In this document: piece after piece, positions 1-15,783 of the stretch | Layout: each line of letters begins with the position of its first letter | How positions within the stretch are numbered: position 1 is the first letter of the stretch | DNA from: an uncultured Gammaproteobacteria bacterium | GTDB lineage: Bacteria; Pseudomonadota; Gammaproteobacteria; GCA-002705445; GCA-002716945 | Reading direction: 5' to 3' | NCBI GenBank assembly: GCA_902559355.1 | Contig: CACEHM010000004.1 | Span: forward strand, 18,679 to 82,678 | Length of the DNA stretch: 64,000 nt | Made by a program: the position numbers and the translations under genes | Notes under the pieces: generated by a model | Told to the model about the DNA's origin: nothing | Databases searched by the model: none | What the model saw: the letters and a program-made list of their open reading frames with translations, nothing else

Positions 1-16
1 AGAATATGGATGGTGT

Positions 17-232
17 GTGAGAAAATTAAGTAAATCTGATCAAACAAAAGCAAACGTATTTTTCGATAAAATAAAAGCACTACCTATATTAAAAAAATTA
101 GAAATAGAGCACACTAAAGAAGTAAAAATATTAAATCTTATTTCACTATTGAGAATAGCTCCATATGTTAGAGACAAAATTACAGAAAATTGGCTAGTCC
201 ACCAGCTAAATAAAATTACAAGAGATTTATAA
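17..232 (+). CDS. hypothetical protein, possibly the 3' end of a gene cut by the window edge
   Basis: GTG-initiated 71-aa ORF. The frame stays open back to nt 2. No recognisable motif. Its TAA shares one nt with the next ATG (TAATG). Confidence 0.25.
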   Translation: MRKLSKSDQTKANVFFDKIKALPILKKLEIEHTKEVKILNLISLLRIAPYVRDKITENWLVHQLNKITRDL

Positions 233-1299
233 TGACAACACTCATTCTACCAGTAGCAGGCAAATCAAGCAGATTCAAAGGTCTAAGACCTAAGTGGCTT
301 TTAACAATGCCTGACGGGAAATTACTTATCGAAAAATCTATTAGGGATATTAATTTGGATGAAATGAATAAAATCGTGATTATTTGCTTACAAGAACATC
401 TTGATAAATACATTAACAAGAGTGATCTTATCAAGTTATTTTCAGATCTAAAGTTATCGGTTGAAATTGTTGTACTAAAAAAACAAACTTCATCAGTTGC
501 TGAGACAGTTGCAAAGGGTATAGTGAAAGCAGATATAAGTGGACCAATCTTTATAAAAGACTGTGACAATACCTTTGCTTTAAAATTTAAAGGTAATAAT
601 AGTGTTGCAGTTATAGATCTGAATACTATTGACTTTATTGATGCTAAAAATAAAAGTTATGTTGAAGTGGATAAACTTCATCACATCAAAAACATCGTGG
701 AAAAAAATGTAATTAGTAATTTATTTTGCTGTGGCGGTTATGGATTTAAAGACTCTTCTGAATTCATTAAATATTTCAAGAGGATATTTAAAGCAAATAC
801 TGAGGGAGAAATTTACATTTCACATGTGATTTATAGCATGCTGATTGATGGTGAAGTGTTTAAAGCAGAAAAAGCGGATAGTTATGAAGATTTTGGCACA
901 TCGAAAGAGTATTTTTCATATATGAATACATTCTTGACTGTGTTCTGTGATATTGATGGGGTTCTTCTTGAGAATGGAAGTAAATTTGGTAAGAAAAAAT
1001 GGAAAACAGAAGCTTTAGAAAATAACATAAAATTACTTGCCGAATATCAAAGAAAGTCAAAATTATACTTGATTATCACAACATCACGTCCGGAGTCCGA
1101 GAAATCATATATTACGAAGATACTAGCTAAATTTGATTTAATTCCTGACCAGTACGTAATGGGACTACCTCATACAAAAAGATATTTAATAAATGATTTT
1201 ACTCAATCTAATCCTTATCCAAGTGCAATCAGTATTAATATCAGTAGGGATTCTGATAATCTTGAAAAACTACTCAAACCTATTCTTAAAGATTTTTAG
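232..1299 (+). CDS. sugar-phosphate nucleotidyltransferase / HAD-family phosphatase fusion protein
   Basis: N-terminal nucleotidyltransferase-type motif LILPVAGKSSRF. C-terminal third carries HAD motif I FCDIDGVLLENG and a downstream IITTSRP motif. Confidence 0.55.
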   Translation: MTTLILPVAGKSSRFKGLRPKWLLTMPDGKLLIEKSIRDINLDEMNKIVIICLQEHLDKYINKSDLIKLFSDLKLSVEIVVLKKQTSSVAETVAKGIVKADISGPIFIKDCDNTFALKFKGNNSVAVIDLNTIDFIDAKNKSYVEVDKLHHIKNIVEKNVISNLFCCGGYGFKDSSEFIKYFKRIFKANTEGEIYISHVIYSMLIDGEVFKAEKADSYEDFGTSKEYFSYMNTFLTVFCDIDGVLLENGSKFGKKKWKTEALENNIKLLAEYQRKSKLYLIITTSRPESEKSYITKILAKFDLIPDQYVMGLPHTKRYLINDFTQSNPYPSAISINISRDSDNLEKLLKPILKDF

Positions 1300-1310
1300 G
1301 ACCCATAATT

Positions 1311-3074
1311 ATGCCAACAATAGGAAAATTCATTAGAAATCTCAGACAAATATGGATTTATATTTCTGAGAAGAGAAAACGGCAATTATTTCTTTTAATT
1401 GCACTCTCTTTAGTTTCTGCCTTTGCAGAAATTATCACAATTGGTTTAGTTGTTCCTTTTTTGGCTATTCTAACTAATCCTCAGGTATTAATGGAGTTCG
1501 TGCATATTAATAATTTCATGAAATATTTGAATTATGATGCTACAAATCTATCTGTTGTTGACGTGTCTATCTTCTTTGCAGTTGCAGCTCTTTTGTCTGG
1601 AATAATAAGAGTCCTTATGATCTATATGACTGTAAGATTCTCATTCGCAACAGGTTCTGACCTAGCTTTAAAAATGTATTCAAAAGTCTTAAATCAAGAA
1701 TTCAAAACACACATAAACAGAAATAGTAGTCAAATAGTTGATATTGTTTTCCAAAAGATAAATCTGGTTATACAGAACGTTATCGTCACTTCTATAACAT
1801 TAATAAGTTCAATTATTATAATATCGATGATATTTTTATTTTTATTATTTATAAAACCCATCGTAACAATAGGAACATTATTAGTTCTCGGTTTATCATA
1901 TGCAATATTAATTAAGTTTACGAGAAATCGTGTCTATTCCAATAGTACATTAATTGCAAAAAATTCGAATCTTGTTATTAAGAATATACAAGAAGGTGTT
2001 GCAGGAATTAGAGAAATATTATTAACTGGAACACAGAAACTATTTATCCAAAAATTTCATAATGTACAATCTCCACTGAGACTCTCGCAGGCAGATAATT
2101 CTTTTATCTCATTCAGCCCGAGATATATCATGGAGACTGTTGGAATTCTATTACTGGTAGCACTTGCATATTTTTTGCACAGTCAAGGAGGTCTTGGGTC
2201 ATCTATAACGCTGCTAGGTGTTTTAGCTCTTACTTCACAGCGTTTATTACCATTGGTGAACCAATCATACTTCTCTTACACCAGTATAAGAGGAGAGCAA
2301 GTTTCATTGGAGGACGTTATCGACTTATTATCACAACCTCAAATTATTTTTGAAAAGGTCAATGATAGTTTCAAATTTGAAAAGAATATAATTTTAGAAA
2401 ATATTAATTTTTGTTATGATTCAAAAAAAAATGTTCTAAGCAACATAAATCTTGAAATTACTAAGGGGACTAAAGTCGGTATAATTGGGACCAGTGCGAG
2501 TGGCAAAAGTACCTTAGCTGATATTATTGCATGCTTATTAATGCCTGATTCTGGATCTATCAAAATTGATAATAAATTATTAGATAAAGGCAGTTATAAT
2601 CAATGGCAAAATAAAGTAAGTTATGTATCACAATCAATTTTTCTCAATGATAATACAATTGCTGAAAATATTGCATTTGGTGAGATAAAATCAGATATAA
2701 ATATAGAAAGAGTAAAGATGTGTGCTCAAAAAAGTCAACTAGCGACGACAATAGATAAGCTACCAGATAAATACAATACAGTCATCGGTGAGAAAGGGAC
2801 AAAACTCTCTGGCGGACAAAAGCAGCGATTAGCTATTGCTAGAGCACTTTATAGAGAATCTTCTTTTCTTATTTTGGATGAAGCTACTAGTGCTCTGGAC
2901 CATGAAACTGAAAAGCTTGTAATGGACTCAATAATGGGACTAGAAAAAGATATAACAATGTTAATTATAGCACATCGCACTACAACACTTGCAGGTTGTG
3001 ATACTATAGCAGAGTTAAAAAATGGAGAGATTACCTTCATAGGAGATTATAATAATCTTATGAAACAAAATTAA
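1311..3074 (+). CDS. ABC exporter, fused permease/ATPase (MsbA/PglK-like half-transporter)
   Basis: About 300 aa of hydrophobic TM domain, then Walker A GTSASGKST, signature LSGGQKQR, Walker B FLILDEATSALD and H-loop IAHR. Confidence 0.9.
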   Translation: MPTIGKFIRNLRQIWIYISEKRKRQLFLLIALSLVSAFAEIITIGLVVPFLAILTNPQVLMEFVHINNFMKYLNYDATNLSVVDVSIFFAVAALLSGIIRVLMIYMTVRFSFATGSDLALKMYSKVLNQEFKTHINRNSSQIVDIVFQKINLVIQNVIVTSITLISSIIIISMIFLFLLFIKPIVTIGTLLVLGLSYAILIKFTRNRVYSNSTLIAKNSNLVIKNIQEGVAGIREILLTGTQKLFIQKFHNVQSPLRLSQADNSFISFSPRYIMETVGILLLVALAYFLHSQGGLGSSITLLGVLALTSQRLLPLVNQSYFSYTSIRGEQVSLEDVIDLLSQPQIIFEKVNDSFKFEKNIILENINFCYDSKKNVLSNINLEITKGTKVGIIGTSASGKSTLADIIACLLMPDSGSIKIDNKLLDKGSYNQWQNKVSYVSQSIFLNDNTIAENIAFGEIKSDINIERVKMCAQKSQLATTIDKLPDKYNTVIGEKGTKLSGGQKQRLAIARALYRESSFLILDEATSALDHETEKLVMDSIMGLEKDITMLIIAHRTTTLAGCDTIAELKNGEITFIGDYNNLMKQN

Positions 3075-3084
3075 TGGGGTACTT

Positions 3085-3675
3085 ATGTCAGTCACAAAAG
3101 AGCAATTAATAAATTTTGAAAAAAAAGTAAAAAAAGTTTACGAAGAGGGAAAAATCCTTGCCCCGGTCCACTTATCTGGTAACAATGAGGATATATTGAT
3201 AGAGATCTTCAAAAAAATAGATAGGGAAGACTGGGTTTTCTCAAGTTGGAGAAATCATTATCATGCCTTGCTTCATGGAATAGATGAACATGAACTCTTC
3301 AATAAGATACTTGACGGTAGAAGTATGTCAATCAACTCAAAAGATCGAAATTTTTATTCATCTTCAATCGTAGGCGGTATTATACCTATAGCATTGGGTG
3401 CAGCGTTAGCACTAAAAAGAAATAAAGCAAAAAAAACCGTATGGTGCTTCATTGGTGACATGACATTTGAAACTGGTATATTCCATGAGTGTTATAAATA
3501 TTCACGTAATTTTGATCTTCCATTAAAATTTGTAGTTGAGGACAATGACCTGAGTACTAATACTCCAACTGAATTTGCTTGGAATAAAAAAAGTACTATT
3601 CCGAAAGATATAATCTATTATAAATATGAAAGACTTTATCCTCACCATGGAACAGGCTCTTGGGTATTATTTTAA
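3085..3675 (+). CDS. ThDP-dependent dehydrogenase E1 alpha-like subunit, short form (PP domain only)
   Basis: E1-alpha-like VHLSGNNED...WRNHYHALLHG. ThDP motif GDMTFETG...(about 25 aa)...VEDNDLS. Only 196 aa against about 320-370 for classical E1 alpha. Confidence 0.6.
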   Translation: MSVTKEQLINFEKKVKKVYEEGKILAPVHLSGNNEDILIEIFKKIDREDWVFSSWRNHYHALLHGIDEHELFNKILDGRSMSINSKDRNFYSSSIVGGIIPIALGAALALKRNKAKKTVWCFIGDMTFETGIFHECYKYSRNFDLPLKFVVEDNDLSTNTPTEFAWNKKSTIPKDIIYYKYERLYPHHGTGSWVLF

Positions 3676-4212
3676 ATGAAATATAAAGACGAATTAATTA
3701 GATCTATGAATTACCTTGCAAGTAATCAAAAAACTATATTTATTGGACAATCAGTCTCCTACTCAGGTAACGCAATTTTTAATACATTATCAGATATACC
3801 TAGTTCTAAAAAAATAGAAACTCCTGTTTTTGAGGATGTTCAAATGGGCATGTCACTCGGTATGGCATTAAATGGTTTCATACCAATTACTTGTTACCCA
3901 AGATATGATTTTTTAATATGTGCTTTAAATCAAATGATTAATCATGTCGATAAAATTCAATTTATGTCAGAAGGCAAGATGCAACCTCGAGTAATAATAA
4001 GAACATCAATAGGCCCAAAGAAGCCTTTAGACGGAGGTCCTCAACATACAGGAAATTATACTGAGGCTATTGAGAAAATGGTAACAGAAATTAAAGTTAT
4101 CAGTCTCAATGAACCTGAAGAGATCTTCCCAGCGTACCAAGAAGCTTTAGATAGTAAAGAGCCCAGGTGTACACTAATCATAGAAAATGGCGCACATTAT
4201 AATGATAAGTAA
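3676..4212 (+). CDS. E1 beta-like subunit, short form (Pyr domain only)
   Basis: E1-beta/transketolase Pyr-domain pattern IETPVFEDVQMGMSLGMALNGFIPI...NQMINHVDK...GGPQHTGN. 178 aa, so the C-terminal domain of classical E1 beta is absent. The ATG directly follows the alpha-like stop. Confidence 0.6.
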   Translation: MKYKDELIRSMNYLASNQKTIFIGQSVSYSGNAIFNTLSDIPSSKKIETPVFEDVQMGMSLGMALNGFIPITCYPRYDFLICALNQMINHVDKIQFMSEGKMQPRVIIRTSIGPKKPLDGGPQHTGNYTEAIEKMVTEIKVISLNEPEEIFPAYQEALDSKEPRCTLIIENGAHYNDK

Positions 4213-4226
4213 ATTAGGAATGAAAT

Positions 4227-5930
4227 TTGAAAAAAATTAGAGTAGTTGATTATATTATGGATTTCCTTTGTTCAAAGGGCTCGGATTCCATATTTGTCCT
4301 TACTGGAAATGGTTCGATGTATATAAATGATGCAATTGCTAAAACTAAAAGATTGAAATACTATACCGTACGCCATGAAACTGCAGCACCAATGATGGCA
4401 GAGAGCTACTCAAGGCTGACAGGTAAGTTAGGAGTTGTGTGTGTAACAGCTGGCCCAGGCGCAACTAATACAGTTTCAGGACTTGCAGAAGCTTGGGTTG
4501 ATTCTGGTGCAGTTATGGTATTATCTGGGCAGTCTCCAAGAAAACAAATTCCAAAGAATAATATTAGAACTTTTGGAACTGCTGGATTTAATGTATTGCC
4601 AGTTGTCAAGCCTATGACAAAGTATGCCGTATGTATAAATAATCCTAAGTCTATTAGATATCATCTTGAAAAGTCCTACCACATAGCAACTACTGGTAGA
4701 CCTGGGCCTGTATGGATTGATATACCAATGGATGTTCAGTATGCACTTATAGATCCAAAAAAACTAAAGAGCTTTTCTCTACCTTCCACAAAAAATATAC
4801 AAATACTCACACAAAAAATAAATACAATAATAGATATATTAATGGATTCCAAAAGGCCATTAATTATAGCCGGTCATGGTGTAAGGCAATCAAAATCAAT
4901 AGATATTTTGAAGAAACTTATAAATAAATTACAAATTCCAACAGGTTTCTCAAGGCTAGGTAATGACATCTTACCTTTTTCAAATAAGTTGAACATGGGG
5001 CAGTTAGGAAGAAGGGGTCAAAAGTACTCTAATAAGCTTTTAAAATCTGCAGATGTTGTGTTGGTTTTAGGCTGTAGATTAGCTACGCCATTAGGTGGCG
5101 AAAACTTAAATCATTTTGATAAGAAGGCTAAAATTATTATGATAGATATTGATAAGAATGAAATAGAATTCCTTAAAAAACACCTATATATGTACATCAA
5201 TGGAGATGTTAATATTTGTTTGAAAAATCTTTCTAAGTCAAAAAAACTTAAAAAACAACCAGAGTGGGATTCCTGGTTAAGTGAATGTTCATCCCTCAAA
5301 AATTCTAATCCTATGATTGAAAAAGATTTATTCAAAAATGATAAACAAATTGATCTTTATAATTTCATGTCAGAATTAGATAAATGTTCTAATCAAAATG
5401 ATATTTTTACGACAGATGCTGGCTCTAATTATTATGTTGGAGGACAAGTTTATTGTTTTGAAAATAATCAAAGAGAAATAACATCTGGAGCATATGCTGC
5501 AATGGGTTTATCAATTCCTTTAGCAATTGGTGCAGCTGTAGCCATGCCTGATAAAAGAATATTAGCTGTTACAGGAGACGGATCACTAGAACTGAATATA
5601 CAAGAACTAAAGACCATTAGTTATTACAACTTTAATATAAAACTATTTGTAATTAACAATGGTGGCTATGCCTCTATGAGAAACTGGCAAGATAAATTCT
5701 TTGATGGTAGAAGGATTGGTTCTGATAATGATACTGGCGCAGAAATGCTTGACCTCAGTGCAGTTGCCAAAGCATTTGATTTGAGGTACGAGTGTATTTC
5801 TGATGTAAAAAGCATGAATAAGGATATAAAGCGTATTTCTAAAAAACCAGGCCCAATTTTCATCGAAGTTGTATGTAGTTCAGAGCAAGAAATAGTTCAG
5901 GCCTATACTCTTACTGAATGGTCAAATTGA
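4227..5930 (+). CDS. ThDP-binding acetolactate-synthase-like enzyme (IlvB/YerE-like carboligase or decarboxylase)
   Basis: N-terminal Pyr domain VCVTAGPGATNTVSGLAEAW, a central domain, and C-terminal ThDP motif GDGSLELNIQELKT...VINNGGYASM. TTG start. Confidence 0.8.
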   Translation: MKKIRVVDYIMDFLCSKGSDSIFVLTGNGSMYINDAIAKTKRLKYYTVRHETAAPMMAESYSRLTGKLGVVCVTAGPGATNTVSGLAEAWVDSGAVMVLSGQSPRKQIPKNNIRTFGTAGFNVLPVVKPMTKYAVCINNPKSIRYHLEKSYHIATTGRPGPVWIDIPMDVQYALIDPKKLKSFSLPSTKNIQILTQKINTIIDILMDSKRPLIIAGHGVRQSKSIDILKKLINKLQIPTGFSRLGNDILPFSNKLNMGQLGRRGQKYSNKLLKSADVVLVLGCRLATPLGGENLNHFDKKAKIIMIDIDKNEIEFLKKHLYMYINGDVNICLKNLSKSKKLKKQPEWDSWLSECSSLKNSNPMIEKDLFKNDKQIDLYNFMSELDKCSNQNDIFTTDAGSNYYVGGQVYCFENNQREITSGAYAAMGLSIPLAIGAAVAMPDKRILAVTGDGSLELNIQELKTISYYNFNIKLFVINNGGYASMRNWQDKFFDGRRIGSDNDTGAEMLDLSAVAKAFDLRYECISDVKSMNKDIKRISKKPGPIFIEVVCSSEQEIVQAYTLTEWSN

Positions 5931-6742
5931 TGGATATTAAAAATCTAAAAGAAATATCCAATAAATTAAAATTCGAAATTATTAAGACAGCTTTTGACAA
6001 ACAAAAAGGAAGCTTAGGAGGAACACTGTCATGCCTCGATATACTTATAGCTTTATATTTCAAACCTATTCTAAATGTATCTTCTGACGAAGCTAATGAT
6101 ATAAACAGAGATCGATTTATACTTAGTAAAGGACATGCCTGTGTGGCATTGTATCTTATTCTAAAAAAATTAAATTACATTGATGATGAAACACTTCTGT
6201 CCTATGGTGATAATGGCGGTCTTGGAGCGCAATTAGATTATTACATACCAGGTGTCGATTGGAATACTGGCTCTCTTGGTCATGCACTTGGTGTTATTGC
6301 AGGTATGGCTTTATCTGCTCGTATGAATAGTCAGGATTATCATTCATATACTATTCTGGGTGACGCAGAAATGTCTGAGGGTTCCATATGGGAGGCATTA
6401 ACATTTATTGGTGATAACAAATTAAGTAATCTTACTTGTATCATAGATAGAAACAGATTGTCTGTCACAGAGGAACTAGAAGATGTTGGCCTTTTCCGAG
6501 ACTTTAATAGGATAATGTCTTCACTGGGCTGGGAACCTATTGAAATAGATGGCCATAACTATGATGAGATAATAACTTCTCTTCAAAAATCTCGTATTAG
6601 TAAAAAGCCAACAATAATTTTAGCCAATACTATTAAAGGCAAAGGTATATCGTTTATGGAAAATAACATTAAATGGCATGGTGCAATTCCATCAAAAGAA
6701 GAGGTAGAGATTGCAAGAGTGGAGCTAAATCAAGGTGAGTAA
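5930..6742 (+). CDS. transketolase, N-terminal (PP-domain) subunit
   Basis: LSKGHACVALY, GSLGHALGVIAGMA, GDAEMSEGSIWEAL...IIDRNRLS. ATG at 5930 shares one nt with the upstream TGA (TGATG). Alternative in-frame ATG at 5918. Confidence 0.8.
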   Translation: MDIKNLKEISNKLKFEIIKTAFDKQKGSLGGTLSCLDILIALYFKPILNVSSDEANDINRDRFILSKGHACVALYLILKKLNYIDDETLLSYGDNGGLGAQLDYYIPGVDWNTGSLGHALGVIAGMALSARMNSQDYHSYTILGDAEMSEGSIWEALTFIGDNKLSNLTCIIDRNRLSVTEELEDVGLFRDFNRIMSSLGWEPIEIDGHNYDEIITSLQKSRISKKPTIILANTIKGKGISFMENNIKWHGAIPSKEEVEIARVELNQGE

Positions 6743-7667
6743 CAATATAGATATAAGAGATGCATTCTTTGATGAGATTTATGAATGTGCAGTAAATGAT
6801 AAAGATATTGTTATTATTACAAATGACATGGACATATTTAGCTTAAAAAAATTTAAAAAAAATTTTCCTGAAAGATTTATAAATGTAGGTGTTGCTGAAC
6901 AAAATATGGTGAATTTAGCTGCAGGACTAGCATCATGTGGGAAAAAAGTTTTAGTATATGGAATACTCCCATTTTTAATTTATCGCTGCTTTGAGCAGCT
7001 TAAGTTTAATATCTGTAGTATGAATTTACCTGTTATCTTTGTAGGGGTAGGTACTGGATTAGGCTTCTCATTTGATGGTCCAACACATCATGGTATTCAT
7101 GATATTGGCTCACTTACTACCTTGCCAGAACTTGATATATATAACTTTGGTGATGTTGGCTCAGCAGCTCAAATTGGAAAAACGATTTTTGATAACAAAA
7201 ATCCATCTTTTATAAGACTTGATAAAGGAGATTTCCCTGCACTTGATAATTTTGAAAACATAAATAGAGGTTCATTTAATATTATTAAGCCAATAAAAGA
7301 AATTAATATTCTACTTACTGGATATATGACTAAACAATGCTATGAAATTTATAATTATTTTTCTAATATGGGTATAGAGCTTGGTATAGTTGATGTGTAT
7401 GGACTAAAGCCAATATCTGAAGATTTAAGAAAAAGTGTTATATATCCAAGTAAAAAATTAATTGTTATTGAAGAAAATTCTATTACCTGCGGTTTAGGCT
7501 CTATTCTCTCTAATATTTTAGCAATAAAGGGTCTGAATATTCCCCTTAAAATATTAGGATTAAGCAACAAACAAATATTTGATTATGGCGATAGAGATTG
7601 GCTTATAGCTAAAGAGAAATTAGCTATGAGTGATATTATAGAAAGAATACAAGAATTTATAATATAA
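6735..7667 (+). CDS. transketolase, C-terminal (Pyr + C domain) subunit
   Basis: FINVGVAEQNMVNLAAGLA, FDGPTHHGIHDIG. GTG start overlaps the N-subunit end by 8 nt. Confidence 0.8.
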   Translation: MSNNIDIRDAFFDEIYECAVNDKDIVIITNDMDIFSLKKFKKNFPERFINVGVAEQNMVNLAAGLASCGKKVLVYGILPFLIYRCFEQLKFNICSMNLPVIFVGVGTGLGFSFDGPTHHGIHDIGSLTTLPELDIYNFGDVGSAAQIGKTIFDNKNPSFIRLDKGDFPALDNFENINRGSFNIIKPIKEINILLTGYMTKQCYEIYNYFSNMGIELGIVDVYGLKPISEDLRKSVIYPSKKLIVIEENSITCGLGSILSNILAIKGLNIPLKILGLSNKQIFDYGDRDWLIAKEKLAMSDIIERIQEFII

Positions 7668-7676
7668 TCTGAGCAT

Positions 7677-8453
7677 ATGGATCTAAAATTAAAAGGCAAG
7701 AAGGCGTTTATATCCGGTGGAACACATGGAATAGGCCTTTCTATTGCAAAAAATCTTGGCCATGAAGGATGCGAAATTATTTTTTGCTCTAGAACTATAA
7801 AGAGACTTAATTTTACATTAGATTTGCTGAAAAATATGAATATTAGTGCCTATGGATATCAGTGTGACGCTCTTATTCGTGAGGATGTTGATAAGTGTAT
7901 TAATATTGTTAAAGATGAAATAGGAGGGATAGATATTCTTGTGAATAATGTAGGAGGCGGCGGCAGCTGGGGAAGTGAGGATATTACAAATACTGATGAG
8001 ATAATATGGCACCAAGTATATGAAAAAAATGTTACAGCAGCAATAAAGTTTACAAACGGATTTTTGCCTAGTATGGTCGAAAATAATTGGGGTAGAGTAA
8101 TCACTATAACATCTACTCTTGGAATAGAAGCTGGAGGCAGGCCTTGGTTTAATATTGCTAAAACTGCACAAACAGCTTTAATGAAAAATCTTTCAAAAAA
8201 TAAAATGTTTGTTAAAAAAGGCATAACATTTAATTGTATTGCTCCTGGACCAATAGACATTCCTGATACAGGATGGGCAATTAAAAAAAAGGAACCAAAA
8301 TTTGATGAATTTATAGATACGTTGATTCCGATGGGCAAATTAGGTAAACCTGAAGATGTCGCAAATATAGTTTCATTTATAGCATCTCCATTAGCTAAAT
8401 TTATTAATGGTTCCTCGATAACAGTTGACGGTGGAACAAGTACAGCATTTTAA
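7677..8453 (+). CDS. short-chain dehydrogenase/reductase family protein with atypical active-site motif
   Basis: Rossmann motif ISGGTHGIGLSIA and NNVG. Where YxxxK is expected the sequence reads PWFNIAK, with no Tyr. Confidence 0.7.
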   Translation: MDLKLKGKKAFISGGTHGIGLSIAKNLGHEGCEIIFCSRTIKRLNFTLDLLKNMNISAYGYQCDALIREDVDKCINIVKDEIGGIDILVNNVGGGGSWGSEDITNTDEIIWHQVYEKNVTAAIKFTNGFLPSMVENNWGRVITITSTLGIEAGGRPWFNIAKTAQTALMKNLSKNKMFVKKGITFNCIAPGPIDIPDTGWAIKKKEPKFDEFIDTLIPMGKLGKPEDVANIVSFIASPLAKFINGSSITVDGGTSTAF

Positions 8454-9613
8454 TGAAGACCTCAAAAAGATCCTCTAATATTAATCCGCAGCCTATGTTT
8501 GAGATTTTACAAGCAGCCAAACAGCAAGAGAATCTTGGTAAGGAAATAATTCATTTAGAAATAGGAGACTCAAGCCCTTTAAATAATAATCAGATATTTA
8601 ATCTGCTTAAAAAAAATCTTAATAATTCAGAATCGCTAGAATATAGTCCATCGGAAGGAGAAAGAAAATTACGGGAAGCTTTTCTCTATCACTATAAAAT
8701 ATTATGTAATTATGAATTTACACTAGACAATGTCGTTGTTACACCTGCAAATGCAGCAATATCACAGGTTATAAACAGTATAACTGATATTGGAGACTCA
8801 TTACTCTTGCCTGATCCAGGCTTTCCAACGTTTAATTTATCGACCAAATATCATGAGGTACGTACAGTTCTTTATAATCTAGATCAAGACAATGGATATC
8901 AGCTTAATATTCAAAATATAAAGAACAAAATTAAATCTGATTCATCTATCAAAGCTATTGTGATTAACAATCCATCTAATCCTTTGGGTATTTACCATAA
9001 TCTTGAGGATATTGATGAAGTCACTGAATTCTGTGAAAAAAGAAAAGTATTTGTTATTTTGGATGATACTTATCGTTGTCTTATCTATAACCCAACATAC
9101 AAAAGGAATATACATAGAGACAATATAATATATATTTATTCTATGTCTAAAGATACAGCATCCCCAGCTATGAGAATCGGATGCGTAGTCGGGGATTCAA
9201 AAGTTATCAAATGTATATCAAGACATAATTCTTTATTTTATTCATGTTTACCTAAATTCATACAGCTTGCAGCTGCAGAATATTTAATGGAAGACCATAG
9301 ACCGTATAGAATTAAAATGCGAAATGAAATGATACGTAGAATTAATACAATAGATGAAATTTTAAAAAAAACACATGCAATCTCATATATAAAGCCAAAT
9401 GCTGGAATATATTATTGGATAAATGTATCAAATACAGGTATGACTGGCAAAGAGCTATCACTCAGACTATTAACGGAGTCGGGCGTATGCGTATGTCCTG
9501 GGGAAGGATTTGGACCTTCCGGTATAAACTATATAAGAATTTGCATCAGCGGTGATGATGAATTATTAATGAAAGGAATAGATAAAATATTTAAGTACAT
9601 AGAAAACGCGTAA
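8453..9613 (+). CDS. class I/II (AspC-fold) PLP-dependent aminotransferase
   Basis: NNPSNPLG, LDDTY, and Schiff-base region SMSKDTASPAMRIG. Confidence 0.8.
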   Translation: MKTSKRSSNINPQPMFEILQAAKQQENLGKEIIHLEIGDSSPLNNNQIFNLLKKNLNNSESLEYSPSEGERKLREAFLYHYKILCNYEFTLDNVVVTPANAAISQVINSITDIGDSLLLPDPGFPTFNLSTKYHEVRTVLYNLDQDNGYQLNIQNIKNKIKSDSSIKAIVINNPSNPLGIYHNLEDIDEVTEFCEKRKVFVILDDTYRCLIYNPTYKRNIHRDNIIYIYSMSKDTASPAMRIGCVVGDSKVIKCISRHNSLFYSCLPKFIQLAAAEYLMEDHRPYRIKMRNEMIRRINTIDEILKKTHAISYIKPNAGIYYWINVSNTGMTGKELSLRLLTESGVCVCPGEGFGPSGINYIRICISGDDELLMKGIDKIFKYIENA

Positions 9614-9649
9614 ATATGATAACTTTTAGAAAAATCATTGGAATCATTA

Positions 9650-10414
9650 ATGATTGAAATAGCACTAATAACTCCTGTATATAATCCAACAGAGAAACAG
9701 CTAAATAATTTAGTCAAAACATATACCTCTCTTAAAGATGTTATTAGCTGTTTTTACCTTGCTATAAACGTAAAATCAAAAAATATTGAACTACTGAAAG
9801 AAAAAATAAAAGACTTTAATTGTTTAATTAAAATTGCTGACGATAATGGTCCAGATGATGCTCTAAGAAATATGGCTGAAGATGTTAGAGAAGAATTTAC
9901 TTGGATGGTAACATGCGGAGAACTAATAGAAATGAAAGATAAAGATTTTCTGAAAAAAGTTGATAAAAATTGCATAGTTTTTGGTAATACAACATTCATA
10001 AATCAAAATGGTAATAATTCCACTATGAATCCTAAAAAATTTAACAGATTTTATAAATATAAAATACCTATTCTTAATTTAAGTTCTTGTATTATGAGTA
10101 AGGATAATTTTTTTAAGTCTACGCCTACAAAAAAATTTAAAGTTGCAACTGACTATGAGCAAATATTACGACTTTATAACCTAAATTTAAATTTATGTTT
10201 TACTGATTCATACAAACTTACATTCTTTAATGATGGAAACTCTGTACAAAACAAAGTTAGAGGTATTGCTGAAATGTATTGTATAAGCAGAATATTTTAT
10301 CCTGAAAACAATCTATCTAGAATAATATTTTATACAGCATTCCTAATGAAACATCGAATAAATCCTTTTAAATTCTTAAATGAACTAACTAAAATAGATG
10401 AATATATAAATTAA
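9650..10414 (+). CDS. putative glycosyltransferase (family-2-like)
   Basis: N-terminal IALITPVYNP and DDNGPDDALRN resemble the GT2 start and the PDxGxxDAxN region. Weak similarity. Alternative TTG start at 9638. Confidence 0.35.
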   Translation: MIEIALITPVYNPTEKQLNNLVKTYTSLKDVISCFYLAINVKSKNIELLKEKIKDFNCLIKIADDNGPDDALRNMAEDVREEFTWMVTCGELIEMKDKDFLKKVDKNCIVFGNTTFINQNGNNSTMNPKKFNRFYKYKIPILNLSSCIMSKDNFFKSTPTKKFKVATDYEQILRLYNLNLNLCFTDSYKLTFFNDGNSVQNKVRGIAEMYCISRIFYPENNLSRIIFYTAFLMKHRINPFKFLNELTKIDEYIN

Positions 10415-10512
10415 TACGTTAATATACAAACGATAGAGATTTATTAACCCATTAAATAATTTATATTTCTATTTAAAAGACTGAAATATTGAATCAACAG
10501 AGTGGAGACTTT

Positions 10513-11502
10513 ATGATTAATAATGAAATATTAGATGAATTTTCTCATAAGAAGGTTCTAATTACTGGCGGAACAGGCCTCATTGGAAGAGAAATAGCAA
10601 AGCTACTTGTAGATGCTGGCTCAGAAGTGACAGTAGTTTCTTTAGACAATATCAAAATCAGTGATCAGGTCAAACACATTCATGGAGATCTTACGGATTT
10701 TAATTTTTGTAAAGATATAATTAATGGAATAGATTACGTATTTCATGTGGCTGGAATTAAAGGCTCTATTGATGTCACTATAAATAATCCAGCAAGTTTT
10801 TTTGTACCTCTCTTAATGTTTAATACAAATGTCCTAGAAGCATCCAGATTGAATAATGTTAAAAAACTTGTTTATACCAGTTCAATTGGCGCTTACAGCG
10901 CTGCAGAGATATTTAAAGAAGGCGAGAATGAAGATAAAGAGCCGATGGATATGTTCCCAGGATGGGCTAAAAGAATGGCGGAACTACAGATCAAGGCTTA
11001 TGCTAAACAATATGGAATTAATACCTATTCTATTGTCCGCCCCTGCAATGTATATGGTCCAGGTGATAATTTTGATCCAAAAAATGCCATGGTGATACCG
11101 ACGTTAATGCAAAGAATACTCAATAAAGAAAATCCTGTAACTGTATGGGGAGATGGTTCAGCTATTAGAGACTTCGCTTATTCATCTGATGTAGCAAAAG
11201 GGACAATATTGGCCTTATATTATGGAACAGATGGTAAATATGTGAACCTAGGAAGTGGGGATGGCTATTCCATTAAAGAATTAGTTGAAACACTAGCTGA
11301 ATTCCTAGATTTCAATTATGAATTTGATACTTCTAAACCATCTGGATTCCCTCGTAGAATAATGGATATAAACTTAGCAAGAGAAATGATTAAGTATCAG
11401 CCTGAAATAAGTCTTTTGCAGGGTTTAAAAAATACATGGAAGTGGTTCAAAGATAATGCAGATGAATATAAAGATAAACAAAATTATTTTGTCTCTAAAT
11501 AA
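10513..11502 (+). CDS. GDP-L-fucose-synthase-like (GMER/FX family) NDP-sugar epimerase/reductase
   Basis: ITGGTGLIGREI Rossmann motif. GWAKRMAELQ...RPCNVYGPGDNFDPKNAMVIPTL matches the FX/Fcl pattern SYAKRM...PTNxxGPxDNF...HVxPxL. ATG at 10513 is preceded by GGAG. The track's TTG at 10489 is less likely. Confidence 0.7.
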   Translation: MINNEILDEFSHKKVLITGGTGLIGREIAKLLVDAGSEVTVVSLDNIKISDQVKHIHGDLTDFNFCKDIINGIDYVFHVAGIKGSIDVTINNPASFFVPLLMFNTNVLEASRLNNVKKLVYTSSIGAYSAAEIFKEGENEDKEPMDMFPGWAKRMAELQIKAYAKQYGINTYSIVRPCNVYGPGDNFDPKNAMVIPTLMQRILNKENPVTVWGDGSAIRDFAYSSDVAKGTILALYYGTDGKYVNLGSGDGYSIKELVETLAEFLDFNYEFDTSKPSGFPRRIMDINLAREMIKYQPEISLLQGLKNTWKWFKDNADEYKDKQNYFVSK

Positions 11503-12521
11503 TGAAAAATAAAATAGCATTCATTACAGGAATTACAGGCATGGTAGGCTCACATTTGGCCGAATACTTAGTTAATAATACAGACTGGGATATTATTGGG
11601 CTCATAAGATGGAGAAGTCCTTTGGACAACATTAGCTCATTAGTAGAAAAAATAAATAATAATACAAGAATAAAGCTAGTTTATGGTGACATTAGAGATC
11701 CATTGTCTATTGATGAGGTTATTAAGAGCAATAAACCCGACTATTTATTTCATCTGGCTGCTCAAAGTTATCCTTTAACAAGTTTTACTGCACCCTTAGA
11801 TACATTAGAAACAAATATTCAAGGAACTGCTGTTGTACTAGAAGCACTTAAGAAGTATTCAAAAGACTGTATAACACATGTATGTGCATCCTCTGAAGTT
11901 TTTGGCAGAGTTACAAAAGATAAGCTTCCTATTAATGAAGAATGCACATTTCATCCAGCATCACCTTATGCAATATCAAAAGTTGGTACAGATCTTTTAG
12001 GAAGATATTATGCTGAAGCTTATGATATGAAAATTATGACAACGCGAATGTTTACGCATACCGGGCCAAGAAGAGGTGATGTATTTGCTGAATCAACTTT
12101 TGCAAAACAAATTGCTATGATTGAAAAAGGTTTCATAGAACCTGTAGTAAAAGTTGGAAATTTAGATAGTTTGAGAACTATATCTGATGTAAGAGATGCA
12201 GTACGTGCTTATCATATGCTTGTGACAATTAATCCATTGGGAGGGGAATACTATAATATAGGTGGTACATATAGTTGCACTATCGGAGATATATTAACTA
12301 AGCTAATCTCATTAAGTACTAAAAAAGAAACAATTTCAATTGAGACTGATCCGGATAGACTCAGACCAATTGATGCAGATTTACAATTACCTGATACAAC
12401 AAAATTTCAAAAACATACTGGATGGGAACCTAAGATTGATTTTGAAACTACTATGTCAGATCTACTTAGTTTTTGGAGAGATAAAGTTTCAAAAGAAGGT
12501 AATATTTTTCTAAGGAGATAA
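11502..12521 (+). CDS. GDP-mannose/GDP-heptose 4,6-dehydratase family enzyme
   Basis: FITGITGMVGSHLAEYL, HLAAQSYP, SPYAISK (YxxxK), THTGPRRG. All match GMD/DmhA-type signatures. Confidence 0.8.
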   Translation: MKNKIAFITGITGMVGSHLAEYLVNNTDWDIIGLIRWRSPLDNISSLVEKINNNTRIKLVYGDIRDPLSIDEVIKSNKPDYLFHLAAQSYPLTSFTAPLDTLETNIQGTAVVLEALKKYSKDCITHVCASSEVFGRVTKDKLPINEECTFHPASPYAISKVGTDLLGRYYAEAYDMKIMTTRMFTHTGPRRGDVFAESTFAKQIAMIEKGFIEPVVKVGNLDSLRTISDVRDAVRAYHMLVTINPLGGEYYNIGGTYSCTIGDILTKLISLSTKKETISIETDPDRLRPIDADLQLPDTTKFQKHTGWEPKIDFETTMSDLLSFWRDKVSKEGNIFLRR

Positions 12522-12523
12522 TA

Positions 12524-13039
12524 ATGAAAGTACTGAAAACTAATTTAAATGGAGTTATGAAAATTGAATTGGAGTCATTTAGTGATCATAGAGGTAAGTA
12601 TACTGAAACATATAACGATGAGATTTATAAAAAATCAGGTATAAATGTTGATTTTGTTCAAGATGATATTTCTTATTCAAAAAAAAATGTCCTTAGAGGA
12701 TTGCATGGTGATGAGGAGACATATAAATTAGTATCTTGTTTGCACGGTGCATTTCAGTTAATTGTGGTTAATAATGATGATAAGTCTTCTGAATATAAAA
12801 AATGGATTTCATTTGAATTATCAGGTGACGATGATTATCAAATTTTAATTCCTCCAAAATTTGGTAACGGCCACTTTGTTACAAGTGCTGATGCAATATT
12901 TCACTATAAGCAGAACACTTATTATAATCCAAAAGGACAATTCACAATTTTATGGAATGATCCAGAATATCAATTTACTTGGCCACATAATAATCCTATT
13001 CTGTCTAAAAGAGACGAAATAGGTAACTTTGAAAAGTAA
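12524..13039 (+). CDS. RmlC-type cupin NDP-4-keto-6-deoxysugar 3,5-epimerase
   Basis: FVQDDISYSKKNVLRGLHGD and FGNGHFV match the RmlC-family core. 171 aa. Confidence 0.75.
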   Translation: MKVLKTNLNGVMKIELESFSDHRGKYTETYNDEIYKKSGINVDFVQDDISYSKKNVLRGLHGDEETYKLVSCLHGAFQLIVVNNDDKSSEYKKWISFELSGDDDYQILIPPKFGNGHFVTSADAIFHYKQNTYYNPKGQFTILWNDPEYQFTWPHNNPILSKRDEIGNFEK

Positions 13040-13146
13040 TACTTTTTATCAATCACCAAGGTTTCAGAGCAGTCTATACAATAGCTATTAAATTATTCTA
13101 TTAGTAATTTAATGTTTTAAATTTAAATGCATGTATAATCTTTCAT

Positions 13147-14103
13147 ATGGATTTTTTGAAAGATAAAAATGTCCTTGTTACAGGAGGCAGTGGTTTTGTT
13201 GGTACAAATCTTCTAAAAAGATTGCTATCTTCAAAATGTAAACTTTACACGACTACTCACCATACAAAACCACAATTTACTGACGATTCCATTAAATATA
13301 TAAATGCAGATTTAACTAATCCAAAAGATTGTCTGAAGGCTACATCAGGTATCGACTATATATTTATGTGTGCAGCAAATACATCTGGCGCTGCAGTGAT
13401 GGAAAATAACCCGCTTGCACATCTTACACCTAATATCTTGATGAACTTATCTTTATATGAGGCTGCATACAAAAATGAAGTTAGTAAAATACTTTTCATT
13501 AGTTCAAATACAGTATATCCAGTTACAGACTTTCCTGTTAAAGAAGATGATGTGACTAATGAATTCTTTCATAAGTACTTCATTGTGGCTTGGATGAAAA
13601 GATTTACAGAGATAGTCTCTGAAATGTATTCAGAAAAAATTAAGGATAAAATGAATATTGTAGTAGTTAGACCTGCTAACTTATATGGAGAATTCGACGA
13701 TTATGAGTGGGAAACTTCACATGTAATACCTGCGTTAGTTAGAAAAGTTGCAGAAAGGCAAAATCCAATCAATGTATGGGGGGACGGAAAAGATTTAAAA
13801 GAATTTCTATATATTGATGATTTTATTGATGGAATAATTTTAGCAATGGAAAAAATCAACTCTTCAAACCCAATTAATCTCTCTTTAAATAAACCAGTAA
13901 CCGTTAAGGAGATTATAAATCATCTGATAGATATTGAAGGGTATAGTGATGCAGAAGTTGAATATGATATTACAAAACCAACTATGATTCCAAAAAGATT
14001 AATAGATAATTCACAAGCAAAAAAATTACTAAACTTCAATCCTCAAATAGATATTAAAGAAGGTTTATCGAGAACATTAAACTGGTATAAGAGTAGGAAA
14101 TGA
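13147..14103 (+). CDS. GDP-L-fucose-synthase-like NDP-sugar epimerase/reductase (second copy)
   Basis: VTGGSGFVGTNL. AWMKRFTE...RPANLYGEFDDY...SHVIPALVRKV closely parallels Fcl (PTNLYGPHDNF...SHVIPALLRRF). Confidence 0.7.
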   Translation: MDFLKDKNVLVTGGSGFVGTNLLKRLLSSKCKLYTTTHHTKPQFTDDSIKYINADLTNPKDCLKATSGIDYIFMCAANTSGAAVMENNPLAHLTPNILMNLSLYEAAYKNEVSKILFISSNTVYPVTDFPVKEDDVTNEFFHKYFIVAWMKRFTEIVSEMYSEKIKDKMNIVVVRPANLYGEFDDYEWETSHVIPALVRKVAERQNPINVWGDGKDLKEFLYIDDFIDGIILAMEKINSSNPINLSLNKPVTVKEIINHLIDIEGYSDAEVEYDITKPTMIPKRLIDNSQAKKLLNFNPQIDIKEGLSRTLNWYKSRK

Positions 14104-15092
14104 TTATAACTAGGACTCCATTTAGGATTTCTTTTTTCGGCGGAGGGACAGATTATCCAGATTGGTATAATAATAATCCAGGGGCTGTAATAAGTACTAC
14201 AATAAACAAATATTGCTATATTACATGTAGGCCACTACCACCATTTTTTGATTATAAATATAGAATTAGGTATCACAAAAAAGAAGAGACAAAAAATATT
14301 CAAGAGATAAAACATCCATCAGTCAGAGAGTGTCTTAAATATACAAAAACAACACAAGGACTTGAAATAGTTCATCATGCAGATTTACCCGCAAGATCAG
14401 GTTTAGGCTCAAGTTCTACTTTTACGGTAGGCATGCTTCATGCCTTGAATGCTTTGCATGGAAAAATGATATCTAAACGACAATTAGCTTTAGACGCTAT
14501 TGATATTGAGCAGAATATAATTAAGGAAAATGTAGGATCTCAAGACCAGACTAATGCTGCCTTCGGTGGCTTTAATCATATTGAATTCAATAAAACAAAA
14601 AAAATTATTGTCAATCCAATAATTTTATCTAAAATGAAGATAAGTAAAATAAGTTCACATTTAATGCTTTTTTTCACAGGCTTTTCAAGGACTGCATCGG
14701 ATATATCAAAACATCAAATTACTGCAATTAAAAAAAATAAAATAGATATGACTCATAATTATGAATTAGTCGAGGAAGCAAAAAAAATATTAAATAAAAA
14801 TTATTTCATTAAAGACTTTGGAAATTTACTCAATGAACAATGGAGAATAAAAAAAAGTTATACCAACAAAATAACTAACCCAGAAATTAATTCTATTTAT
14901 AAAACTGGCATTAAGTCAGGTGCTTATGGAGGTAAACTTTTAGGAGCAGGAGGAGGTGGATTTATCTTATTTATTATAGATCCCAAATATCAAAATAGAT
15001 TAAAAAATAAACTTAAGAAATTACTTCATGTTCCAATAAGTCTAGAGTCTCTTGGTAGCCAAATCGTATACTACTCTAATGCAGACATATAA
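14100..15092 (+). CDS. hddA: GHMP-family sugar kinase, D-glycero-D-manno-heptose 7-phosphate kinase-like
   Basis: N-terminus RTPFRISFFGGGTDYPDWY, GHMP motif LPARSGLGSSSTF, and GAGGGGF near the C-terminus. Confidence 0.75.
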   Translation: MIITRTPFRISFFGGGTDYPDWYNNNPGAVISTTINKYCYITCRPLPPFFDYKYRIRYHKKEETKNIQEIKHPSVRECLKYTKTTQGLEIVHHADLPARSGLGSSSTFTVGMLHALNALHGKMISKRQLALDAIDIEQNIIKENVGSQDQTNAAFGGFNHIEFNKTKKIIVNPIILSKMKISKISSHLMLFFTGFSRTASDISKHQITAIKKNKIDMTHNYELVEEAKKILNKNYFIKDFGNLLNEQWRIKKSYTNKITNPEINSIYKTGIKSGAYGGKLLGAGGGGFILFIIDPKYQNRLKNKLKKLLHVPISLESLGSQIVYYSNADI

Positions 15093-15774
15093 TTGTTTAA
15101 TATTATGTGGTGGGCAAGGGACGAGAATAAGAGAATATAACTCTAATATTCCTAAGTCTTTGCTAGAGGTAGGAGGAAAAAGATTCATAGATCATTTACT
15201 TTTACAATTCAAGGAATTTAACATAGTTCTATGTACGGGGTATCTAAGCAATCATTTTGAAAATCTTTTTTCTAACTCTCAAACTGTAAATATATCAAAA
15301 GAAAAAAAACCATTAGGAACAGGTGGCGCAATACTAAATGCCATCAAATATATTGATAACTGCGATTCTTTCCTTGTTATTAATGGTGACTCATATTGCG
15401 ATTTCAAGATTAATAATTTTATAAATTCTTATAAAACTGAAAAATGTGATCTTATGATTTTAGCTACTGATAATTATGATAATCACTCTGATTTTGGTAT
15501 GATAGAAATTAGAGATAAAAAAATAATCAAATTTCATGAAAAATCCTCTCATCTAATTAAAGGAAGTCTAAAAAACTGTGGAATCTATATGATAAAAAAA
15601 GAACTTTTGAATATATTTAATCATAATTGTTCTCTAGAAAAAGATATAATACCAACTTTAGTAAAAAATTATCATTGTTCAATCCATAAAATAAGCGAAA
15701 AGGTATACGACATTGGTACACCGAAGAGAATAGCGATAGCTAATGAATATTTTAATAGTCAAAAGAGGACATAG
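15079..15774 (+). CDS. hddC: sugar-1-phosphate nucleotidyltransferase, heptose-1-phosphate guanylyltransferase-like
   Basis: LILCGGQGTRI plus GTGGA. ATG at 15079 overlaps the kinase end by 14 nt. The track's TTG at 15052 is a less likely start. Confidence 0.7.
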   Translation: MQTYNCLILCGGQGTRIREYNSNIPKSLLEVGGKRFIDHLLLQFKEFNIVLCTGYLSNHFENLFSNSQTVNISKEKKPLGTGGAILNAIKYIDNCDSFLVINGDSYCDFKINNFINSYKTEKCDLMILATDNYDNHSDFGMIEIRDKKIIKFHEKSSHLIKGSLKNCGIYMIKKELLNIFNHNCSLEKDIIPTLVKNYHCSIHKISEKVYDIGTPKRIAIANEYFNSQKRT

Positions 15775-15783
15775 TATTCACTG

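Follow-up and report, generated by a model that had tools for sequence, protein, structure and literature searches.

Three classes of thiamin diphosphate enzymes in a conserved gene block of a gammaproteobacterial glycan island: a candidate route to branched-chain sugars

Organization of the five-gene block

In order to assess the function of three adjacent thiamin diphosphate (ThDP)-dependent enzyme systems, a 64,000-nucleotide stretch of an uncultured Gammaproteobacteria bacterium (assembly GCA_902559355.1, contig CACEHM010000004.1, positions 18,679 to 82,678; hereafter the window) was analyzed. The systems are encoded at positions 3085-7667 of the plus strand by five co-directional open reading frames (ORFs), abutting or overlapping, with spacings of 0, 14, -13 and -8 nt. 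These comprise a short E1 alpha subunit (3085-3675, 196 aa; E1_dh, 1.6e-19) and a short E1 beta subunit (3676-4212, 178 aa; Transket_pyr, 5.2e-09), together the mini E1 pair; an acetolactate synthase (ALS)-like ThDP carboligase resembling YerE and JanthE (4227-5930, 567 aa; TPP_enzyme_N/M/C, 1e-27 to 1e-32); and a split transketolase (TK)-like enzyme made of a PP chain, TKN (5918-6742, 274 aa; Transketolase_N, 6e-30), and a Pyr plus C-terminal chain, TKC (6735-7667, 310 aa; Transket_pyr, 2e-23; Transketolase_C, 1.5e-10). Families were called with Pfam and NCBIfam, the NCBIfam equivalog cut-offs being used as membership thresholds. The initial annotation of this DNA had described three adjacent ThDP systems of unrelated family, each with its own motif, and all five ORFs and the quoted motifs were recovered by Pfam, NCBIfam and motif position.

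The mini E1 pair

The alpha subunit covers only positions 6-177 of the 300 positions in the E1_dh profile, and the beta subunit matches Transket_pyr only, the C-terminal (E2-binding) domain being absent. The ThDP motif is present in alpha (GDM, aa 124-126; X25; EDND, aa 152-155), and alignment to the E1 beta structure 1ik6 showed that the Glu that activates the cofactor (TPVFED) and the histidine of GGPQH are both retained in beta. Residues H29, G124, D125, N154, H187 and G189 of alpha were invariant among the aligned homologues, as was the C-terminal PHxGxG. An AlphaFold2 model of alpha (pLDDT 79) superposed on human pyruvate dehydrogenase (PDH) E1 alpha at 1.8 Å (TMq 0.74-0.76, TMt 0.41), matching approximately 41% of the human subunit. 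Relatives of the alpha subunit formed 113 clusters (50% identity) at E <= 1e-30; almost all homologues were 194-199 aa long among the 120 listed of 4098, and natural alpha-beta fusions of approximately 400 aa occur in the family. Because length and invariant residues are kept across homologues and natural fusions exist, the short form cannot be put down to an artefact.

The pair scored far under the cut-offs of the corresponding families (97.6 bits against 393.85 for TIGR03182, 52 bits against 321 for PRK09212), and profile scans of the window proteins found no E2/lipoyl or E3 genes in the cluster. By length, domain content, score and context, the pair does not appear to be the E1 component of a 2-oxoacid or acetoin dehydrogenase complex; as judged from its domains, it is stripped of all parts that dock to such a complex. 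A phosphonate-type small alpha/beta decarboxylase (Ppd, ComDE) was also considered and rejected, the window pair being of E1 type in sequence and fold; Ppd and ComDE belong to the ALS-like DC family. Among relatives of mini E1 alpha, P0196 is fused to an APH-type kinase domain, and a Hint/intein splicing domain (P0162) and a LAGLIDADG domain (P0152) were found inside or beside the protein.

The ALS-like carboligase

The ALS-like protein has the Pyr-middle-PP architecture, with RHET (aa 49-52) carrying the catalytic Glu, and a ThDP motif formed by GDGS (aa 450-453) and NNGG (aa 477-480). Its best match in the PDB was JanthE (8rph, 1e-86), and plant acetohydroxyacid synthase (AHAS) matched at 6.5e-73. 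Where AHAS has RFDDR, whose Arg377 (A. thaliana numbering) binds the carboxylate of the 2-ketoacid acceptor, the window protein reads RLATP (aa 284-288) and JanthE reads RLAIP. The protein reached 363.4 bits against the AHAS equivalog TIGR00118 (cut-off 538.35), and neither ilvN/ilvC nor an AHAS small regulatory subunit was found among the neighbours of its gene. Score, Arg377 position and context all indicate that the protein is not a biosynthetic acetohydroxyacid synthase (IlvB/G/I). JanthE is a YerE-like enzyme that couples 2-oxoacids to ketones (PMC12247030).

The split transketolase

The N chain carries GDAE (aa 148-151) and DRN (aa 177-179), and the C chain the catalytic Glu within AEQN. 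TKN matched the split transketolase 6yak (2.6e-53), and TKC matched 6yaj (4e-34), DXS (1.7e-24) and human TK (5e-14); the enzyme is nearest to the Carboxydothermus split transketolase. Four residues of the human enzyme, H37, H77, H110 and H258, were taken to be the canonical active-site histidines, with roles known from yeast and human TK. In alignments H77 and H258 are retained in the window enzyme, whereas H37 is replaced by Ser and H110 by Gln. The first Arg of the phosphate-binding pair is retained (IRDAF) and the second is Lys (RLDKG), resembling 'PKGD' of DXS. Against NF004559 (transketolase, cut-off 488 bits) the N part reached 224.6 bits and the C part 128.8 bits. The window enzyme thus has the domains, ThDP motif and catalytic Glu of a transketolase, but its His positions, Arg pair and score set it apart from the transketolase of the pentose phosphate pathway (PPP; EC 2.2.1.1), as far as sequence can tell.

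The substitution follows gene context. Gln occupied the H110 position in all 11 ALS-linked transketolases, whereas His was retained in all six linked to a short-chain dehydrogenase/reductase (SDR) without ALS; the SDR-linked enzymes retain all four canonical histidines. By this residue the ALS-adjacent transketolases appear to form a class of their own, the Gln clade. In the Pelagibacteraceae locus L026 both types are present (1736-3467 and 9920-11600), the His type beside an SDR and the Gln type beside ALS. Because both occur in L026, the two are not simple alternatives everywhere.

Conservation of the block across distant taxa

A scan of species-representative genomes yielded 457 stretches with relatives of mini E1 alpha. 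Carriers included a marine Gammaproteobacteria metagenome-assembled genome (MAG; L008, 86% identity, same layout), many Pelagibacteraceae, SAR202/Dehalococcoidia and Patescibacteria, and furthermore Woese- and Pacearchaeota, Planctomycetes, Synechococcus, and Prochlorococcus MIT 9314 and MIT 9107. In nearly every sufficiently long locus the genes for alpha and beta stood side by side. Immediate neighbours of the pair (129 ORFs in 65 loci) were dominated by Epimerase/GDP_Man_Dehyd (29), radical SAM (15), GHMP kinase (11), GmhA-type SIS_2 (6) and HAD/PNK3P families. The radical SAM proteins, some of which carry a B12-binding or SPASM domain (e.g. L016 16270-18081), were the second commonest neighbour at 15 of 129 ORFs, and could possibly C-methylate or epimerise the same sugar.

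Neighbourhood mining for the five-gene block, which the initial annotation had put forward, recovered it repeatedly. The surroundings of eight ALS homologues (53-83% identity), drawn from unrelated sources, were sampled (L090-L096 and the P0279 context); ALS, TKN and TKC were adjacent in all eight, with the E1 alpha/beta genes directly upstream in seven. Downstream of TK, an aldo-keto reductase (AKR) or SDR lay within two genes in six of the eight and an ORF of 250-257 aa came next in five, followed by an epimerase in all seven contexts with E1; an RmlC-like gene was present in five contexts, and six had a GHMP kinase. The recurring order is therefore E1ab-ALS-TK-(SDR or AKR)-small GT-A transferase-epimerase, found in bacteria of the candidate phyla radiation (CPR) and in metagenome contigs. 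Sources included Candidatus Curtissbacteria (L092), L093 (whose ALS protein is attributed by NCBI to an Anaplasmataceae MAG) and metagenome contigs of 0.3-1.1 Mb. In five species-representative loci, from Omnitrophota (L055) and Pelagibacter (L016, L017, L025 and L026), the three systems lie close together in looser order. The genome record of Pelagibacter HIMB1412 contains all three systems, while the complete genomes of Prochlorococcus MIT 9314 and MIT 9107 contain the mini E1 only.

The E1 pair is full length (310-323 plus 346-353 aa) in L091, L092 and L094-L096 and mini in the window, L090 and L093, the two forms sharing approximately 30% identity over the common core. A purely modular view, with the mini E1 belonging to heptose genes and ALS and TK as unrelated additions, was dropped, since E1ab is directly upstream of ALS-TK in seven of eight contexts. 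Because the order recurs across distant taxa, the three-system block appears to be a selected and laterally mobile unit. The initial annotation placed the genes in a glycan cluster, and this was borne out. Central-metabolism settings (ilv, acetoin or pentose phosphate operons) were looked for around the homologous blocks and the opposite was seen: each block found lies among nucleotide-sugar genes.

Exchange of the ALS-TK cassette between near-identical strains

By blastn, window positions 1-4211 and 9650-16510 were 97.0% and 94.6% identical, respectively, to L087, whereas the strain-variable segment between them (4212-9649; ALS-TKN-TKC-SDR-aminotransferase) is replaced in L087 by an unrelated 2.6-kb SDR-TKN-TKC cassette (9810-12422). 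The exchanged segment is bounded exactly by the stop codon of E1 beta on one side and by the start of the GT-A gene on the other. Contigs with an E1 alpha 100% identical to that of the window carry a different middle, and the exact ALS protein of the window was found in 2 contigs compared to 25 for its E1 alpha. L090 is laid out like the window, with 77% nucleotide identity; therefore, both cassette alleles persist. In this lineage the E1 pair is a conserved core, while the ALS-TK-SDR-aminotransferase segment is swappable and dispensable. The earlier treatment of the five genes as one unit accordingly holds in part: the arrangement recurs elsewhere but is not fixed here, the ALS-TK segment being swapped for SDR-TK in L087. 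Surface-glycan diversity in these strains probably arises in sugar chemistry, beyond glycosyltransferases alone, and probably serves evasion of phage or grazers.

Genes surrounding the block

The block lies in an island of glycan genes spanning position 232 to approximately 25.8 kb and containing epimerases, a 4,6-dehydratase, an RmlC-like epimerase, a GHMP kinase and a nucleotidyltransferase, in addition to glycosyltransferases, an EpsG-type polymerase and a Bac_transf initiating transferase. All window genes described in this section are on the plus strand. Directly downstream of TKC is a classical SDR (7677-8453; adh_short_C2, 6.8e-44), which is a candidate for reducing the ketone of an acyl branch; in L091, L092, L094, L095 and L096 an AKR stands in this position. 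The next gene encodes a class I (AspC-type) aminotransferase (8453-9613; Aminotran_1_2, 2.8e-50) which, aligned to the archaeal aspartate aminotransferase 2z61, keeps the pyridoxal phosphate Lys (SKD) and the alpha-carboxylate Arg (YIRI). Because this Arg is kept, the enzyme more likely supplies a 2-oxoacid donor than aminates a sugar. Amination of a sugar or branch ketone as in kibdelomycin was likewise disfavoured for a class I enzyme with this Arg intact.

The accessory gene beside ALS-TK varies among loci. The window, L090, L091 and the P0279 context have a class I aminotransferase there, whereas L055 (4188-5123), L093 (8025-8975) and L096 (15963-16892) encode a PanB-like hydroxymethyltransferase and L094 (14382-16346) a DmpF/DmpG-like dehydrogenase-aldolase pair. 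Each is of a 2-oxoacid-forming type, and donor supply is plausibly the shared role.

The ORF at 9638-10414 (258 aa) had no Pfam or NCBIfam match. Its AlphaFold2 model (pLDDT 84) has a GT-A fold, predicting a small glycosyltransferase, and the best Foldseek match was WrtF (E 1.6e-10, TM 0.64), a fucosyltransferase solved with GDP-fucose. The word-indexed homologue search retrieved only 12 close relatives, so the wider distribution of this protein is taken from synteny; orthologues of 250-257 aa hold the equivalent place in L087 and among L090-L096.

Downstream are a GDP-fucose-synthase-like extended SDR (10489-11502; NF047922, 2.6e-47, under cut-off) and a GDP-mannose-4,6-dehydratase (GMD)-like protein (11502-12521; GDP_Man_Dehyd, 4.7e-71; TIGR01472, 1.5e-46, under cut-off), the two commonest genes adjoining the mini E1 pair. 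The GMD-like dehydratase would be the source of an NDP-4-keto-6-deoxy acceptor. They are followed by an RmlC-like 3,5-epimerase (12524-13039; dTDP_sugar_isom, 4e-46), a second GDP-fucose-synthase-like reductase (13147-14103; NCBIfam, under cut-off), an HddA-like GHMP kinase (14100-15092; NF049969, 6.2e-50, 170.5 bits against a cut-off of 600) and an HddC-like nucleotidyltransferase (15052-15774; NF049965, 1.5e-25, 90.1 bits against 300). The ALS-like gene thus shares an operon-like run with the GMD-like dehydratase, the RmlC-like epimerase, the Fcl-like reductases and the SDR, and the same is true of L091-L096. A GmhA-type SIS_2 gene was found upstream in sister contigs only. Taken together, the enzyme families point to a sugar scaffold resembling a GDP-heptose or 6-deoxysugar. 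Two arrangements of the kinase genes were observed in other loci: L093 (18795-19707, running past the locus end; product 804 aa) has an apparent GHMP kinase, nucleotidyltransferase and methyltransferase triple fusion, and in L092 and L095 NTP-transferase-HAD fusions adjoin the GHMP kinase.

Upstream of the block, a PglK/MsbA-like ABC exporter (1311-3074, 587 aa; ABC_tran, 1.5e-32; PglK in NCBIfam, 8.8e-87, under the equivalog cut-off) is a probable flippase for a lipid-linked glycan. It is preceded by a nucleotidyltransferase-HAD-like (NT-HAD) fusion (232-1299, 355 aa) with weak, sub-threshold Pfam matches to NTP_transf_3 (1.1e-3, aa 8-100) and HAD_SAK_2/Hydrolase_6 (1e-3 to 1e-2, aa 236-320), conserved at 89-90% in sister loci. 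Its HAD part is the sole candidate in the cluster for a GmhB-type phosphatase. The neighbours named in the initial annotation (NT-HAD fusion, SDR and AspC-type aminotransferase) therefore exist, the NT-HAD fusion by weak Pfam matches.

Comparison with known ThDP-dependent branching systems

Three ThDP classes are known or proposed to form carbon branches on ketosugars, namely YerE-like enzymes, E1-like alphaKADH2 and split transketolases (2025 review, PMC12247030); the YerE and E1-like precedents cited in the initial annotation are both among them and are apt. YerE-like branching enzymes act on lipopolysaccharide (LPS) sugars, E1-like alphaKADH2 heterodimers occur in approximately 120 gene clusters for actinomycete antibiotics and draw a C2 unit from pyruvate, and branching by split-gene transketolases is proposed only, with 13 candidates, all Streptomyces (PMC12247030). 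E1-like branching has genetic evidence from paulomycin and avilamycin (PMC4802897, PMC10338323), and in paulomycin an AKR is the proven branch ketoreductase (PMC4753412). In erwiniose biosynthesis ErwJ and ErwI make the 4-hydroxy-2-oxopentanoate donor for ErwE (PMC9306805). A literature search, which did not extend to the in-silico survey of branching ThDP enzymes by Krug et al. 2024, returned no description of a combined three-class block.

The ALS-like protein shares with YerE, ErwE and JanthE (yersiniose, erwiniose and caryophyllose in LPS) the three-domain architecture and the GDG...NN motif, and with JanthE, its closest solved structure, the RLAxP sequence. As in their loci, genes for a 4,6-dehydratase and for reductases adjoin it within a surface-glycan locus, and as with ErwI/ErwJ a nearby gene can make a 2-oxoacid donor, the DmpF/DmpG-like genes of L094 being the same pairing. 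Unlike the YerE type, however, the window scaffold genes are GDP-heptose/GDP-mannose-like and not CDP-3,6-dideoxyhexose-like, the enzyme is in a block with two other ThDP systems, and its donor gene is an aminotransferase.

The mini E1 pair is likened by domain layout and context to AviB1/B2, Pau11/12 (Plm8/9), EvdU5/S3 and KbDH-alpha/beta: adjacent PP-chain and Pyr-chain genes lack E2/E3, a 4,6-dehydratase-derived ketosugar acceptor would be available, and a ketoreductase gene follows. Whereas alphaKADH2 genes are found in actinomycete antibiotic clusters, pairs of the window type are in surface-glycan loci of marine Proteobacteria, Pelagibacter, SAR202, Prochlorococcus, CPR bacteria and DPANN archaea, and the window pair is roughly half-size (196 plus 178 aa), without the C-terminal half of alpha and the C-terminal domain of beta. 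The split transketolase resembles those of miharamycin and amipurimycin, for which hydroxyacetyl branching is proposed, in its PP / Pyr plus C division, its sugar-modification cluster and its apparent non-PPP role; it differs in belonging to a clade with a conserved His-to-Gln change next to a YerE-like gene.

Described GDP-6-deoxyheptose pathways (Campylobacter, Yersinia) use GmhA, HddA, GmhB, HddC, DmhA/DdahA, an RmlC-like epimerase and reductases. The same enzyme families surround the window block, all with matches under equivalog cut-offs. To our knowledge, no ThDP enzyme takes part in the described heptose pathways.

Proposed pathway and alternatives

Because one member of each branching class co-occurs with genes for a ketoreductase, a donor, a GT-A transferase and NDP-ketosugar formation, ThDP-dependent C-acylation of NDP-ketosugars is the best supported explanation. 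The block would be the part of a pathway that forms C-C bonds on the way to a C-acyl-branched deoxysugar, or to several, with GDP-heptose or GDP-hexose as the scaffold, a reading that stands just on the probable side of even. The domains of the block are intact, its proteins are divergent from the housekeeping enzymes, its linkage is conserved and its chemistry has precedent; in the following scheme we infer each substrate, the order of the steps, and whether one sugar is modified in sequence or different sugars are modified.

The HddA-like kinase, the HAD phosphatase domain and the HddC-like transferase would make a GDP-sugar, from which the GMD-like dehydratase (11502-12521) and the RmlC-like epimerase would give an NDP-4-keto-6-deoxy intermediate. 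The mini E1 heterodimer may then decarboxylate pyruvate and add the hydroxyethyl-ThDP carbanion to the sugar ketone, leaving an acetyl branch on a tertiary alcohol as with AviB1/B2, Pau11/12 and KbDH. A longer or functionalised acyl group could be added by the YerE/JanthE-like enzyme from a 2-oxoacid furnished by the adjacent class I aminotransferase. The Gln-clade split transketolase might transfer a further two-carbon unit (hydroxyacetyl or acetyl), either to another keto position or to the new ketone that each acyloin condensation creates. Branch and ring ketones would be reduced by the SDR and the two Fcl-like reductases, after which the small GT-A transferase may install the finished sugar and the PglK-like ABC protein flip the lipid-linked glycan. 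Exchange of the ALS-TK-SDR-aminotransferase cassette for SDR-TK would change the branch, and hence the surface antigen, between strains.

Several observations weigh against this reading. PpYerE (5ahk) matches the ALS-like protein at 4e-56, poorer than plant AHAS, and the matches that suggest a GDP-heptose pathway fall far under equivalog cut-offs. Classical E1 enzymes use a histidine of the alpha subunit that is missing from the mini E1 alpha, so the catalytic competence of the mini form is an assumption. An NDP-ketosugar offers one ketone at a time, and three carboligases would need either iterative chemistry, which has no precedent, or several sugars. Finally, an APH-like kinase and the NT-HAD fusion just upstream, together with an APH::mini-E1 alpha fusion elsewhere, hint at a free intermediate that is phosphorylated later, and not at an NDP-sugar, as the substrate.

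These last genes lend themselves to a different reading, in which the ThDP enzymes, SDR and aminotransferase make a non-sugar or free-ketose molecule (an acyloin, polyol or amino-alcohol) that the APH-like kinase phosphorylates and the NT-HAD protein activates with a nucleotide, for attachment to the glycan as a phospho-substituent as in LicA/LicC or CDP-alditol systems. Sister contigs encode an APH-like kinase (L090 4165-5007; Pfam APH, 9.4e-06) a short way upstream of NT-HAD, ABC and the E1 pair, although in the window only the 3' end of such a gene could precede position 232; P0196 joins APH and mini-E1 alpha naturally in one protein, both the aminotransferase and the SDR are of small-molecule type, and the SDR-TK cassette fits a logic of ketose formation then reduction. 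The blocks of L091-L096, however, are without APH and NT-HAD in the 8-9 kb shown per side and are tied instead to 4,6-dehydratase, RmlC-like epimerase, Fcl-like reductases, GT-A and GHMP kinase with an NTP-HAD fusion, and APH is outside the 25 commonest families adjoining the mini E1 pair; this reading is rather unlikely. It is very unlikely that the transketolase, and perhaps the mini E1, boosts sedoheptulose-7-phosphate (S7P) or pentose phosphate for the adjacent GDP-heptose pathway. GmhA-type SIS_2, HddA-like and HddC-like genes do surround the block, glycan clusters often hold extra copies of precursor enzymes, and SDR-linked transketolases keep the four canonical histidines, but the window enzyme has Ser at H37, Gln at H110 and Lys at the second phosphate-Arg position, and its N part scores 225 bits against the cut-off of 488. 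Its gene is furthermore linked in eight of eight contexts to a YerE-like enzyme that plays no part in supplying S7P, and an acetyl-transferring E1 or ALS would be expected to give 1-deoxyketoses that GmhA could not isomerise. These same active-site substitutions disfavour S7P supply by the transketolase and also the suggestion in the initial annotation that the enzyme furnishes C5/C7 sugar phosphates or a CDP-pentitol precursor.

Automated source annotations (acetolactate synthase, pyruvate/acetoin dehydrogenase E1) would suit ordinary central-metabolism genes (ilvB, acetoin/PDH E1, tkt), or their decaying remnants, in the glycan island by chance. This is contradicted by scores far under every equivalog cut-off, by the lack of ilvN/ilvC, E2/E3 and PPP context, by gene order kept across phyla and by length and invariant catalytic residues kept in the aligned or listed mini-E1 homologues, which together leave chance location exceedingly improbable. 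As for C-acylation of ketosugars itself, a bolder form would have all three ThDP enzymes act in turn on a single GDP-heptose-derived ketosugar, each condensation creating the next ketone. The product would be a multiply branched higher-carbon sugar made in assembly-line fashion, exchangeable cassettes would reprogramme its side chain between strains of abundant marine bacteria, and no heterodimeric ThDP carboligase smaller than the half-size E1 would be known; this extension is speculative and unlikely. Of the initial interpretation, the branched-sugar precedent and the glycan context were borne out; the fixed unit was corrected for this organism and precursor supply by the transketolase is disfavoured.

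Significance of the combined block

The chemistry is of a known kind. What appears to be new is the presence of three classes in one conserved block, the setting of this block among the surface-glycan genes of abundant lineages that are uncultured, the half-size E1 and the Gln-clade transketolase. ThDP-dependent C-branching has so far come from a few LPS sugars and actinomycete antibiotics, whereas here all three classes share one block. Heavily branched surface sugars are predicted on its abundant, mostly uncultured carriers (a marine gammaproteobacterial MAG, Pelagibacter, CPR and Omnitrophota). Furthermore, a minimal E1 heterodimer of approximately 370 aa, a His-to-Gln transketolase clade and a JanthE-like enzyme with a built-in donor gene are of interest for biocatalysis of tertiary alcohols.

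Other features of the window

Two tRNAs were the only RNA elements found in the window, with no TPP riboswitch or other RNA element detected. ORFs without a family match lie in or beside the glycan locus in both the window (25773-26618, 281 aa) and L087 (1402-2310, 302 aa). The remainder of the window encodes housekeeping functions (FTHFS, DnaK, AlaRS, FabF and IspG). Outside the island, beyond the formate-tetrahydrofolate ligase gene (26666-28339), is another gene resembling GDP-mannose/dTDP-glucose dehydratases (28377-29366).

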